Assembly: GCA_038087875.1 (NCBI GenBank)
Contig: CM075990.1
Span: forward strand, 17,424,001 to 17,488,000
DNA: 64,000 nt
Direction of reading: 5' to 3'
From: Malacoraja senta
Taxonomy: Eukaryota
The notes under the pieces are model-generated. The model did no database searches, was not told the DNA's origin, and saw only the letters and a program-made list of their open reading frames with translations. The position numbers and the translations under genes are program-made. Positions 9,965 to 61,242 of this stretch are shown here, in pieces (positions within the stretch are counted from its first letter, which is position 1; the number at the start of each line of letters is the position of its first letter).

Positions 9965-10235
9965 GTGAGAAGGAACTGCAGATGCAGGTTTACACCGAAG
10001 ATAGACACAAAATACTGGAGTAACTCAGCGGGACAGGCAGCATCTCTGGAGAGAAGGAACGCGTGACGTTTCGGGTCGAGACCCTTCTTCAGGGTTGCCT
10101 ACCTGACCAGACTGTCAAGATCTCAGACTCCCTCCCCACTGACTCTTAGTCTGAAGAAGGGTCTCGACCCGAAACGACACCCATTCCTTCTCTCCAGAGA
10201 TGCTGCCTGACCCACTGAGTTACTCCAGCTTTTTT
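9965..10235. mobile_element. Penelope-like-derived short repeat as an inverted pair of arms, each with a hammerhead core
   Basis: Arm 10002-10092 is the reverse complement of about 10151-10233; more than 25 related copies across the window. Confidence 0.75.
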
Positions 10236-10248
10236 ACTCCAGCAAATT

Positions 10249-59100: not shown

Positions 59101-61242
59101 ACAGGGAAATAATGTTTAATGTTTTATGTATCATTCTTAACTGTCACTGTATGTCATGTTGTCACTTGTGGGCGGAGCACCAAGGCAAATTTCTTGTATG
59201 TGAATACTTGGCCAATAAACTTATTCATTCGGTACACAAAAATGCTGGAGAAACTCAGCGGGTGCAGCAGCATCTATGGAGCGAAGGAAATAGGCAACGT
59301 TTCGGGCCGAAACCCTTCTTCAGACTGATTCATTCTTATTCATTCATTCATTCATTCATTCAAACTTATTCATTCATTCATTCATTCATAATGACTGTGC
59401 AGACTGAGGCTTTACCTTCTTCACAAGGTTCAAACTCAGCTTCGAGTTTCTGAACATCAGCACCTGTCAGCACTGCCTGCAGCCGCTTCTGTTTCGCCGT
59501 GATCTTCTTCAGTTGTTTCTCCTTCGGAATGTAGAGCAAATGTTAAACTAGCCATGTTCTGCAACTGCTTTCCCCTCTTTGTTAGGACAATGTAAACATT
59601 TCATTCAGTGGTTAGAGCACAAGAGGCCATTTAGTCCATCGCATCCACACAGGCTCCCCACTGTAGCAACTCTCCAATTCCGCCCTCCACCCTTTCTCCT
59701 CCACACGGCTCACTTTGCCTCACTATATATTTACCCAACCCCTCTCAAAGGCCACAATGGAACCATCACATCCGTAGGTTCAAGTTCCAGATTGCAACCA
59801 CATACTGTGTAAAAATTTGATCCTTTGTCATTCTTATTTCTCTTTCCCTTTATTTTGTACTCGTGATTTGTAGTGTTTAATCTTTCCATCGAAGAGAATA
59901 GCCAGCCAATTCCACTCTGCCTAGACCATACAATATCGTATGTACATATTAACTCTCCATTAGTTACCATATCGACCTTTTTTAACCAAAATTATTTAAT
60001 TCTTGACCGGTTCACTCCTTCCTCTGGCTGCACAATGCTCAATTCTTCAATCCCTTCGTCTCACACCTTTGTTTCATCTCTGGCCTTTATCCAACCATCT
60101 GCCTATCAACGCCCCCCCCCCCCCCCCCCCCCCCCCCCTCCCTGGTGTTCACCTGACAGGTTTTGCCCTGCTCCTCCTCTCTTCCAGCTTTCTTTCTCTC
60201 CCCTCCCCTACAATCAGTCTGAAGAAGGGTCCCAATCCCAAACATCACCTATCCATGTTCTCCAGGGATGCTGCCTGACCAGCACTTTGTCTTTTTTTCT
60301 AAACCAGCATCTGCAGTTCCTTGTTTCTACTTCTTCACTTCCAACCTCCAGCAGTTGCTGATATCCAGTGTGTGATGGGAGGGAGATGAGGTGGTACCTT
60401 GTTTTCTCTCTGTCTCTTCACCGACTCCAGCTTCCTGTTGATGTCTTTATTTGTAGCAGCATAGGGAGTCAGCTGGTCGATGATCTGGTTGGTGTGCTTC
60501 AGACACGCTGTGGTGGACCTAGAGCACAAGGGGAAAAACACAAACGTGTCACGCAAAATTATTTGCCTTGGATCTGGCTGACCACGACAAGTTCCATCCG
60601 GTCTGACACACTTGGAGATCAATGCTACATTTCAGTATGTGAAGTGATCTAGGAAGGATGTTGTTAAGCTGGAAAAAGTACAGAGAAGATTTATGAAGAC
60701 GTTGCCAGGACTCGAGGATCTAATTCTGCTCTTAGAACTTTTGAGTTCTTAGAACTTAAGAACATAAATCCAATCAATTTAGTCTATTATTAAACTATAA
60801 AATCCTCATACCTCAGGTCGTCCAGCACAGAATGGTATTCCCTCTCTGCCTCTGCCCTCCTGGCTGCTTGGCTGGCTTCATTGATAGCTTTGTCCACTTG
60901 TTGTAAAACTCCTTGTTCCAACACTTCCTGGTCATAGATGTCCACTCCAAGGCTCTGCAGCTCCATCACCTGGGCGCTCCGCTCCACCGCCTGGATCTGC
61001 TGCCGGTCAATCTGTAGCCTCTTTGCAGCGCCCCGCACCTCAGCGGGAAGGAGGACCCCCGAGGTGGACGGTCTGCTGTCAGAGACGTCAGCGTCAGCCC
61101 AGCCATCGGCAGGAGCTCCATGTCCTTGAGGAGACTCTGGGCCAGCTGCTTGGAGAGCGGGTGGCACATCTGGATGCTGGCCACCTGCAGATGCCACATC
61201 TGGGCCCTGGCCACCTGGAGACTGGCTTCCTTCGGTTGGCAT
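19746..61242 (-). CDS. ERCC6: ERCC6/CSB DNA excision repair protein, spliced CDS of 20 coding exons (exons 2-21), 4488 nt, 1495 aa
   Basis: Exon translations give the SNF2 motifs [49 protein letters not shown] and [11 protein letters not shown], plus the CSB-specific [12 protein letters not shown] and C-terminal [10 protein letters not shown]...WKLKP. Hand-joined exons sum to a multiple of 3 with compatible phases. Confidence 0.98.
21216..21294 (-). CDS. ERCC6: ERCC6 exon 20 (79 nt, [10 protein letters not shown]...PEKCK)
   Basis: tcctag|G acceptor, AAG|gtattt donor, phase-consistent. Confidence 0.9.
22460..22896 (+). mobile_element. CR1 LINE 3' fragment (intron 19)
   Basis: Homologous to the CR1 3' end; tttctatgtttctatgt tail. 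Confidence 0.88.
23209..23410 (-). CDS. ERCC6: ERCC6 exon 19 (202 nt), GAG acceptor
   Basis: [43 protein letters not shown]; atcgag| acceptor, AA|gtaaga donor. Confidence 0.9.
23805..24557 (-). CDS. ERCC6: ERCC6 exon 18 (753 nt, low-complexity C-terminal linker)
   Basis: TGSDVQVP...IPHLVKR...[12 protein letters not shown]; tggcag| acceptor, G|gtaatt donor. Confidence 0.94.
25040..25196. mobile_element. PIF/Harbinger-type MITE with a TTA target-site duplication
   Basis: TIR AGAGCCTGTCCCACTTGGGCG against the reverse complement of the right end AGGGCTTGTCCCACTTGGGCG (2 mismatches in 21); TTA at 25037-25039 and 25197-25199. Confidence 0.85.
25285..25427 (+). mobile_element. Degenerate Deu-domain SINE (SacSINE1/AmnSINE-like) fragment
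   Basis: GTGGGTTCAAGTCCCACT B-box head and ...CTCTGCCCTGTCAGGTGGA, resembling the Deu domain as I recall it. Confidence 0.6.
25848..25993 (-). CDS. ERCC6: ERCC6 exon 17 (146 nt)
   Basis: [26 protein letters not shown]...TSAIFAG; ttacag| acceptor, G|gtacta donor. Confidence 0.95.
27614..27708 (-). CDS. ERCC6: ERCC6 exon 16 (95 nt, motif VI)
   Basis: [32 protein letters not shown]; ttttag| acceptor, AG|gtctgt donor. Confidence 0.95.
28451..28570 (-). CDS. ERCC6: ERCC6 exon 15 (120 nt, motif V)
   Basis: [40 protein letters not shown]; ttacag| acceptor, CAG|gtgagc donor. Confidence 0.96.
28712..28822 (-). CDS. ERCC6: ERCC6 exon 14 (111 nt)
   Basis: LLNIMELF...[22 protein letters not shown]; cactag| acceptor, GAG|gtagaa donor. 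Confidence 0.95.
29988..30206 (-). CDS. ERCC6: ERCC6 exon 13 (219 nt, motif IV)
   Basis: [21 protein letters not shown]...[10 protein letters not shown]; acatag| acceptor, CAG|gtcaga donor. Confidence 0.96.
30869..30964 (-). CDS. ERCC6: ERCC6 exon 12 (96 nt)
   Basis: [32 protein letters not shown] read manually; ttgtag| acceptor, CAG|gtcagg donor. Confidence 0.94.
33500..34295 (-). mobile_element. Non-autonomous GC-rich retroelement (intron 11)
   Basis: Starts CGGAAGTGGCGG and ends GACAATAAAGGAA plus a (ACTCTA)n tail; related copy at about 37615-38050 (+). Confidence 0.65.
34303..35224 (+). mobile_element. CR1-clade LINE, 5'-truncated, same subfamily as 56613-57834, in intron 11
   Basis: DTKLGGSV...[13 protein letters not shown]...[18 protein letters not shown] tail. 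Confidence 0.95.
36509..36625 (-). CDS. ERCC6: ERCC6 exon 11 (117 nt)
   Basis: [22 protein letters not shown]...PDKSEQ; tcccag| acceptor, CAG|gtgagt donor. Confidence 0.96.
39202..39378 (-). CDS. ERCC6: ERCC6 exon 10 (177 nt, motif III)
   Basis: [17 protein letters not shown]...NASPVQ; tttcag| acceptor, CAG|gtacca donor. Confidence 0.96.
41976..42146 (-). CDS. ERCC6: ERCC6 exon 9 (171 nt, Walker B DEGH)
   Basis: ttgcag|GAG acceptor, CAG|gtatcc donor. Confidence 0.96.
44689..44824 (-). CDS. ERCC6: ERCC6 exon 8 (136 nt, motif Ia), followed by a GC donor
   Basis: [45 protein letters not shown]; ttgaag|G acceptor, AAG|gcaagt donor. Confidence 0.94.
45658..45816 (-). CDS. ERCC6: ERCC6 exon 7 (159 nt, Walker A), followed by a GC donor
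   Basis: [13 protein letters not shown]...GDEMGLGKT...GSNYR; taccag|G acceptor, AG|gcaagt donor. Confidence 0.95.
47730..47864 (-). CDS. ERCC6: ERCC6 exon 6 (135 nt, KWNRKRL...[18 protein letters not shown])
   Basis: acgcag|G acceptor, AA|gtatgt donor; manual translation. Confidence 0.94.
48600..48900 (+). mobile_element. HE1/V-SINE-type SINE, full length (intron 5)
   Basis: GGCACGGTGGCACAGCGGTAGAG head through to a CTAAACTAAA tail. Other copies at about 5550-5815(-), 6745-6972(-), 10918-11200(-), 21995-22135(-), 31175-31505(+), 43790-43922(+), 53505-53670(-), 55507-55610(+), 63645-63790(+). Confidence 0.88.
53978..54477 (+). mobile_element. CR1-like LINE 3' end of a second subfamily (HER1-like partner of the SINE)
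   Basis: [13 protein letters not shown] / [13 protein letters not shown] remnant; its tail GGGCTGAAGGGCCTGTTTCC...CTGTAT is shared with the SINE tail. Confidence 0.85.
54499..54695 (+). mobile_element. Penelope-like element 3' remnant (GIY-YIG endonuclease C-terminus plus 3' UTR)
   Basis: Translates [22 protein letters not shown] (54499-54567), followed by a pyrimidine-rich UTR and the CTGAGTTACTCCAG repeat end; second remnant KEQHLILRL at about 53441-53467. Confidence 0.7.
55629..56325 (-). CDS. ERCC6: ERCC6 exon 5 (697 nt, acidic region, [12 protein letters not shown]...YRKRLR)
   Basis: tgacag|AA acceptor, CG|gttagt donor; [12 protein letters not shown] motif. Confidence 0.95.
56613..57834 (-). 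mobile_element. CR1-clade LINE, 5'-truncated, open RT C-terminal ORF (371 aa), in ERCC6 intron 4
   Basis: [38 protein letters not shown]; 3' UTR and (TCTATGTA)n tail. Confidence 0.95.
59296..59323 (-). ncRNA. Minimal hammerhead core, second subfamily, on the sense strand of ERCC6 intron 4
   Basis: Minus strand CTGAAGA A GGGT TTCG GCCC GAAAC GTT. Confidence 0.62.
59328..59390 (+). repeat. (ATTC)n microsatellite, tail of a LINE 3' end
   Basis: Direct reading; preceded at 59214-59230 by AATAAACTTATTCATTC. Confidence 0.9.
59416..59521 (-). CDS. ERCC6: ERCC6 exon 4 (106 nt, [18 protein letters not shown]...PCEE)
   Basis: Read manually on the minus strand; ccgaag|GAG acceptor, G|gtaaag donor. 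Confidence 0.92.
60112..60138 (+). repeat. Poly-C(27) within a Penelope-like UTR remnant (poly-G on the ERCC6 sense strand, intron 3)
   Basis: Direct reading. Confidence 0.95.
60398..60518 (-). CDS. ERCC6: ERCC6 exon 3 (121 nt, STTACLKH...KRQRENK)
   Basis: ctctag|G acceptor, AAG|gtacca donor, phase-consistent. Confidence 0.93.
60812..61242 (-). CDS. ERCC6: ERCC6 exon 2 coding part (MPTEGSQ...VLDDLR); exon starts at 61252
   Basis: Acceptor ttatag|ACC at 61253-61254, ATG at 61242, donor AG|gtatga; contains [24 protein letters not shown]. Confidence 0.93.

Follow-up and report, generated by a model that had tools for sequence, protein, structure and literature searches.

Minimal type I hammerhead ribozymes are a known feature of Penelope-like elements (PLEs), for which the consensus CUGANGAH-G..C-GAAAN-NUH has been published (Cervera and de la Peña 2014, PMC4209133). 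The motifs described there are mostly dispersed singly, with some close opposite-strand pairs, and low or no activity of the monomers was reported. An inverted, 5′-truncated copy at the 5′ end is typical of PLEs, and an optional tail of 30-40 bp on one end has been described (Craig et al. 2021, PMC8557442; PMC3846280). PLE promoters lie in the pseudo-long terminal repeat (pseudo-LTR, or pLTR; PMC2377424, PMC6765202). In the Poseidon element PAc of Anolis carolinensis, the tail lies between two internal reverse-transcription starts and the hammerhead is dispensable for insertion in vitro; the account of that element also gives no RNA-seq ends at the cleavage site (Frangieh et al. 2024, PMC11167929). 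A preprint reports animal retrozymes, with one chondrichthyan genome among their hosts, and links them to PLE pLTRs (Li et al. 2026, 10.64898/2026.07.22.740005). Here we compare these systems with a short repeat family carrying a hammerhead core in the skate Malacoraja senta, in a stretch of 64,000 nucleotides (assembly GCA_038087875.1, contig CM075990.1, positions 17,424,001 to 17,488,000), which we call the window and to whose first letter all coordinates refer.

A family profile built from 13 window copies and searched against the 64-kb window gave 53 matches on both strands (2801..63492; 4,748 nt summed), equal to 7.3% of the window, around and inside the gene ERCC6. An earlier interpretation made from the letters by themselves (the sequence-only reading) had called this the most abundant short repeat of the window, and so it is: self-BLAST depth peaks at 40 within the family and does not exceed 15 in the rest of the window, and two other repeat families that we counted have 19 and 10 matches. 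The core region is reached by 28 of the 53 matches; the other 25 are truncated downstream of it. We consider it very probable that the repeat is the 3′ pLTR end (~100 nt, or ~135 nt with an optional tail) of an endonuclease-bearing skate PLE, probably of Neptune type, laid down by the route proposed below, and that the hammerhead core is kept in master elements while inserted copies are passive. We read the family as a PLE because of its head-to-head arrangement, two classes of 3′ end, target duplications and an associated endonuclease end.

Abutting matches form 15 pairs, compared with a mean of 5.1 and a maximum of 12 in 2000 random placements. The joint is 5′-to-5′ in 11 of the 15, tail-to-tail in two and tandem in two (binomial p=1.2e-4 against 1/4), two of the 11 head-to-head pairs being duplicates of each other. 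Measured from C3 of the hammerhead, the 3′ ends fall into two classes ~30 nt apart, at +90 to +109 (24/53) and at +120 to +133 (18/53). Within the 11 head-to-head pairs, the tail is found on one arm only in six, on neither arm in four and on both in one. Target duplications of at least 6 nt flank 8 of 20 units, as against 34 of 400 random intervals; the longest are 15, 13 and 11 nt, the latter two being of low complexity. This agrees with endonuclease-bearing PLEs, whose target duplications vary in length and are frequently lacking. The 15-nt direct repeat flanks 30435..30680, a PLE-type insertion without a CUGA box that comprises a tail-bearing inverted arm and two tandem truncated arms with a period of 66. 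The inverted, truncated copy and the tail on one end are shared with Neptune-type endonuclease-bearing PLEs (PMC8557442), and the two 3′ ends with PAc, whose genomic copies end ~100-130 nt 3′ of the hammerhead (PMC11167929). Differences from PAc are that its open reading frame starts at stem II, whereas no reading-frame start was identified in the skate repeat, and that it belongs to another clade and host.

The palindromic appearance of many loci, together with stems that show no covariation (see below), would also be expected of a miniature inverted-repeat transposable element or another DNA-transposon derivative with terminal inverted repeats, in which the likeness to a hammerhead would be incidental. 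The arms, however, differ in length and meet at their truncated 5′ ends, the joints are variable and most copies are single. Moreover, the spacing of the 3′ ends and the link to an endonuclease fit a PLE family, and we regard a DNA-transposon origin as extremely improbable.

The putative endonuclease link lies at 54499..54567 (+), where a PLE GIY-YIG endonuclease frame is preserved in its final 22 codons and stop, the upstream part being cut off by a long interspersed nuclear element (LINE) fragment. A pyrimidine-rich 3′ untranslated region (UTR) follows and leads into the 3′ half of the repeat (54568..54707, +; repeat portion 54657-54707), which lacks the hammerhead core and begins 90 nt after the endonuclease stop at 54567. 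A profile of 79 endonuclease homologues, from which the 10 closest to the seed family were excluded, places the window peptide at the top of 3,309 frames, with E=0.0045 as against E=0.34 for the best control from the reversed window. Reverse transcriptase (RT) and GIY-YIG domains occur together in all four long relatives scanned, and a CX2-5CxxC linker is present in 110 of 119 relatives, which suggests the Neptune or Nematis type. A C-terminal GIY-YIG domain and, in the nearest protein relatives, this linker are features of Neptune-type elements; the assignment to Neptune is limited by the 22 codons in the window and by the occurrence of the linker in Nematis too (PMC8557442). A Pfam scan of two short peptides gave no match. 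The tail of a predicted skate protein is 86% identical to the window peptide over 22 aa, and the 62 residues of that tail align to PLE endonuclease over 56 residues (E=1e-9). The gene model in question (P0211) is named neuromedin-U receptor 1 and ends in ~60 residues of PLE endonuclease, probably as a gene-prediction run-on into a PLE remnant.

A pattern derived from the window peptide retrieved 32 metagenome loci, 29 of which represent one family that we used as a control, and had no matches in viral contigs. GIY-YIG domains were found in two of three frames scanned from this control family. The hammerhead was not part of the pattern that fetched these loci, and a minimal hammerhead nonetheless lies 3′ of the endonuclease stop in 13 of the 32, in 12 of them at a distance of 92-97 nt. 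The 3′ ends of the control family are at +96 to +105 from C3 in 14 of 36 alignments and at +134/135 in 10 of 36, and several of its loci carry second copies on the opposite strand; in end spacing and in opposite-strand copies, it therefore has the same geometry as the window repeat. In loci L006, L016, L030 and related ones the hammerhead is a well-formed minimal one, with a 4-bp helix I and a 5-bp stem II, ~96 nt after the endonuclease stop. The PLE origin proposed by the sequence-only reading is thus supported by the head-to-head pairs, the 3′ end classes, the endonuclease end and the control-family geometry, and the link to PLE pLTRs, whose absence would have spoken against that origin, was found.

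A second, decayed PLE 3′ end may be present at 53430-53960, where by eye an endonuclease-like peptide is followed, after another intervening repeat, by a long pyrimidine-rich tract. The endonuclease-like scrap itself (53430-53490) was supported by neither profile nor by tblastn, and we did not count it.

The core of the skate repeat agrees with the published PLE consensus for minimal type I hammerheads, as had been claimed for it: the CUGANGA box, the extra base before stem II, GAAA and the NUH site are all present, as are G10.1-C11.1 in helix II and the palindromic 15.2/16.2 of helix III. The Acropora Neptune entry shares the 4-bp stem II and the GAAAC-GUC end (PMC4209133). A family-independent pattern (CUGANGAH-G...C-GAAANNUH) has five matches in the window and none in 100 shuffles (mean 0.00, maximum 0), and all ten core positions given by the sequence-only reading carry the sequences it described. 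All 11 catalytic bases are kept in 10 of the 28 core-spanning copies. Five of the 28 also have four pairs in stem II and a stem III that is self-complementary, namely the five that the sequence-only reading had listed as intact or wobble-compatible. Helix I, which it put at about 2 bp and regarded with a doubt that our counts support, does have two contiguous pairs in the copies at 11735, 27219 and 59296, but 0 bp in those at 10065 and 20759, and a formally complete minimal hammerhead occurs in only 3 of the 28 copies (11735, 27219 and 59296).

Five further cores that had been called single-hit mutants indeed have core changes, affecting G12 (4278), A14 (9426), U16.1 (10151), a stem II base (12408) and C3 (16753), but those at 4278 and 9426 additionally differ in loop II. 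What had been taken for a second subfamily, with stem II GGGT(TTCG)GCCC and a GUU site, is one copy of the 28, and stem II is of the common kind in the nearest relative of that copy (17590-17686). A Rfam search returned no hammerhead at the gathering threshold in the window, nor at E<=10 in 9300-13000; hairpin-type microRNA matches at 12860-12950 were below threshold and correspond to inverted arms. The core DNA pattern had no matches in metagenome contigs or in viral contigs.

The skate cores depart in some respects from the published PLE motifs (PMC4209133). Their helix I has 2 bp or none, whereas most published motifs have 3-5 bp, their stem II is at the short end (4 bp), and the family is dense, with about one match per 1.2 kb of the window. 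Over 24 copies, helix II is paired in 85% of cells, helix III in 83% and helix I in 58%; helix I shows two contiguous pairs in the group majorities and does not form in fold predictions. We found no cartilaginous fish in the supplementary table and alignment text of PMC4209133.

Whether the core has been maintained was assessed from the 28 copies and from contigs of four public runs aligned on 12230-12520 (216,409, 143,030, 21,625 and 3,947 contigs), so that our genome-wide statements rest on alignments to one copy. Among the 28 copies, uniformity is higher in the ten non-CpG catalytic columns (0.95) than in 63 non-CpG downstream columns (0.85; p=0.009). Four groups with different downstream sequences have the same core majority save for CpG-type or loop changes, and together these observations fit constraint in master elements, a constraint that does not reach the inserted copies. 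Catalytic G12, which lies in a CpG, is changed in 14-16% of the summed contig depth (four runs, among the variants listed; depth is a rough measure, not copy number), a rate comparable to the 9-16% at the non-core CpG at 12470/12471. The suggestion that the core might be no more conserved than its flanks within copies holds for G12, which decays like a non-core CpG. The claim that pairing is preserved across sequence changes found no support: among 24 gap-free copies, 78.1% of positions are paired as against 77.7% in shuffles, covariation is 0.172 in both, and the stem change in the TTCG copy is a one-sided U-A to U-G wobble. With 24 copies of one closely related family, this covariation test has low power.

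Folding of five copies under 15 settings gave probabilities of at most 0.13 for stem II and at most 0.002 for helix I; in the folds listed, the purine-rich core pairs with pyrimidines 3′ of the cleavage site or sits in a hairpin between inverted arms. In the control family the corresponding values are 0.36-0.70 and 0.02-0.23 when the context is matched, with 25 nt upstream and 100 counted from C3, and 1.0 and ~0.9-0.98 in a short context. A double hammerhead forced on a dimer lies 19 kcal/mol above the dimer minimum for a window copy (-6.1 vs -24.7 kcal/mol) and 10 kcal/mol above it for the control family (-19.3 vs -29.7 kcal/mol). Intact-looking cores in ERCC6 number seven in sense and five in antisense, so that no depletion of the sense strand is seen in these small numbers. 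Dispersed copies are probably catalytically inert, as judged from the missing covariation, a helix I of 0-2 bp, a core buried in the predicted fold and the CpG-like decay of G12. The RNA of master elements, by analogy with known systems, may be active. Minimal motifs cleave weakly as dimers (PMC4209133; Lünse et al., cited via PMC6765202), and the Anolis PAc hammerhead cleaves only with protein (PMC11167929).

Several points weigh against the reading of the repeat as a PLE end with passive copies. The window peptide reaches only E=0.75 with a broad profile built from 119 PLE proteins, tblastn with the same 119 proteins finds nothing in the window at E 0.01, and there is no full PLE frame within the window. 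Queries derived from the window peptide led both to the control family and to the skate protein; as the searches began with that peptide, the PLE matches are partly circular. No copy in the window unites endonuclease, UTR and intact core, the sole linked copy being without a core, and with 53 matches in 64 kb a same-strand match within 100 nt has an estimated ~4% chance of occurring. Twelve of the 20 units lack a target duplication of at least 6 nt. As to inertness, contig depth is, as said, a rough measure, folding energies leave tertiary contacts and proteins out of account, and motifs with a 2-bp helix I have been published for D. virilis and Culex (PMC4209133). Given these published motifs and the dimer- or protein-aided cleavage known elsewhere, weak pairing is no proof of inactivity.

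A less ordinary feature is the uneven distribution of the 5′ ends of the copies. Twenty of the 28 core-reaching copies start within -10 to +4 of C3, near the CUGA box, and the rate of 5′ ends near C3 is 6.9% per base compared with 0.8% further downstream (ratio 8.5). Contig joints at 12403-12406 and 12448-12451 were excluded when placing these ends, because subfamily differences clip alignments there. Only 1 of 53 matches begins at the cleavage site exactly and 5 of 53 begin within 4 nt of it, which we do not take as evidence of cleavage; starts near the CUGA box with a single one at the cleavage site indicate that the templates were mostly uncut RNA. The clustering may reflect run-off from a transcript starting just 5′ of the hammerhead, a short non-autonomous unit, or stalling of the enzyme in the pyrimidine tract. 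The breadth of the 5′ edge, ~14 nt, decides between none of these.

It is possible, although on balance unlikely, that the repeat is a separate short, non-autonomous element of 100-135 nt resembling a short interspersed nuclear element, which would start from TCAGT just 5′ of the CUGA box, be transcribed by itself and be moved by PLE proteins. The clustering of starts at -10 to +4 of C3 (20/28, 8.5-fold rate) would follow from such a unit. So would the flanks upstream of the short copies, which in the 18 compared are unrelated (mean identity 26%, bar one duplicated pair) and less pyrimidine-rich than those of six long copies, and the roughly sixfold drop of summed contig depth just upstream of the core. 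However, 6 of 24 core copies extend into the upstream pLTR, as do contigs that align more than 130 nt upstream of the core, one copy follows an endonuclease end, and 25 of the 53 matches are truncated further downstream. Moreover, the ~14-nt edge is not sharp, part of the depth step is due to subfamilies with other upstream sequence (loose ends), and the promoter of such a unit is putative.

We are more doubtful of a further possibility, in which the short copies would be strong-stop products: RT would prime at the internal tail sites, near the 5′ end of the PLE transcript, and run off the capped RNA end a few bases 5′ of the CUGA box, at a TCAGT that resembles an initiator, and the conserved core of this very successful skate lineage would be a non-catalytic signal (a promoter or a protein-binding site) left after the decay of helix I. 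If that were true, very many genomic copies would record where priming takes place on an uncut PLE RNA and where that RNA begins.

A reading of the family as an active retrozyme, in which tandem copies would cut themselves as dimers and spread via circular RNA, seems very improbable to us. Like animal non-LTR retrozymes, the skate repeat is non-coding and related to PLE pLTRs and carries a type I hammerhead (PMC7229834; 10.64898/2026.07.22.740005), non-LTR retrozymes with a mean consensus of 363 bp are reported from one chondrichthyan genome in the same preprint, and the palindromic ACGU stem III permits dimers in principle. Core-bearing head-to-tail contig joints also exist (26, 12 and 8 contigs among the joints listed, of 216,409 in run X19), and small core-bearing tandems may be present elsewhere in the genome. 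Animal retrozymes, however, are tandem arrays of 150-450-bp units with canonical type I hammerheads and circular RNAs (PMC7229834), whereas the skate copies are single or inverted, with a minimal hammerhead. No canonical type I hammerhead with a long helix I and loop contacts was found in the window, where helix I has 0-2 bp and Rfam gave no match. No core-bearing tandem array was found there either, so that the retrozyme part of the sequence-only reading finds no support; the sole tandem of the family (30534-30658) has no CUGA box. The single start at the cleavage site among 53 matches argues in the same direction, as does the forced double hammerhead, which lies far above the dimer minimum and further above it than in the control family.

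Under the PLE-end reading, which we prefer, the GIY-YIG endonuclease would nick DNA and RT would begin at either of two positions within the RNA of the element, ~100 and ~130 nt 3′ of the hammerhead. It would then copy back through the hammerhead, mostly stopping at or just before it, and a second, inverted and truncated copy would often be laid down head to head. The core would be kept in master lineages, and the inserted copies would be passive, most of them unable to cleave. Master RNA, if it cleaves at all, would need to form a dimer via the ACGU palindrome and would probably need an element protein. The anatomy was observed here and internal priming at two sites is taken from the Anolis PAc literature; that these copies arose by such a route is what we infer.

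The association of hammerheads with PLEs, dispersed truncated copies, inverted pairs and the tail have all been published previously. Our results extend the association of PLE ends and minimal hammerheads to skates and identify a repeat filling 7% of the window, which is useful for annotation and largely ordinary. Literature searches on skates, rays and sharks gave no description of this family, although Repbase, Dfam, subscription papers or the supplements of the retrozyme preprint may well hold one. The role of the hammerhead in PLEs is stated to be unclear (PMC11167929, PMC8557442), and a very high-copy family that ends just 5′ of the ribozyme and not at its cut site, with helix I nearly gone, would offer good natural material on whether cleavage matters for PLE movement.

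Individual copies illustrate this range of structures. A near-consensus pLTR end is found at 11627..11785 (-), with its core at 11735-11762, a 2-bp helix I and ~25 nt of pyrimidine-rich upstream pLTR; its homology to the copy at 12382 spans 11668-11788, and below 11668 it overlaps an adjoining copy. The longest clear pLTR copy is at 12268..12504 (+; core 12408-12435, one stem II mismatch), to whose upstream part contigs from four runs align as far as ~12268-12285. Between these inverted and direct pLTR copies lies a CpG-rich segment of ~480 nt (11789-12270) that is unique in the window and is possibly captured DNA; for its 50-aa frame (11869-12018, +), ESM Atlas gave no usable match. The single copy at 27214..27319 (+) starts just 5′ of the CUGA box and has its core at 27219-27246, with one wobble and a 2-bp helix I. 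Mutated cores occur in a copy with pyrimidine-rich upstream pLTR at 4206..4330 (-; core 4278-4305, G12), in an older copy starting at C3 at 9426..9532 (+; A14) and at 16686..16787 (-; core 16753-16780, C3). Two copies of an older subfamily, 55266..55415 (-) and 60195..60331 (+; G12 mutated), each retain the upstream pyrimidine tract, core and tail.

The head-to-head pair at 9965..10234 combines a minus arm that bears the tail and has its core at 10065-10092 (helix I 0 bp) with a tailless plus arm (core 10151-10178, U16.1 mutated). At 20670..20856, a truncated tail-bearing minus arm abuts a plus arm whose core (20759-20786) has two wobbles and a helix I of 0 bp; a long hairpin is predicted. The two head-to-head units in 62980..63492 are inverted duplicates of each other and hence not independent insertions; there, an inverted duplication takes in an entire head-to-head PLE unit together with its flank (62950-63141 and 63303-63523), beside a GC-rich region upstream of ERCC6. 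The copy with the TTCG loop and GUU site (59234..59329, -; core 59296-59323, 2-bp helix I) lies in an ERCC6 intron on the sense strand. At 59328-59389 it abuts an (ATTC)n microsatellite that ends another repeat, which fits the preference for microsatellites reported for some PLE clades (PMC8557442, PMC3846280).

The host gene ERCC6 is on the minus strand (19746..61311), its first and last coding stretches having been matched by frames at 19749-20237 and 60790-61308 (E=3e-42 and 2e-24 against human ERCC6). Among named homologues, one from the skate Rhinoraja longicauda matches the last exon best (92%), other rays and sharks being at 79-86%; these ERCC6 homologues bear out the elasmobranch host that had been supposed. 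ERCC6 introns house 25 of the 53 repeat matches, 12 in sense and 13 in antisense orientation. The window also contains young, 5′-truncated LINE copies with open frames at 34089-35135 (+) and 56716-57846 (-), which are 97% alike over 923 nt and inverted relative to each other; the latter has a RVT_1 match.

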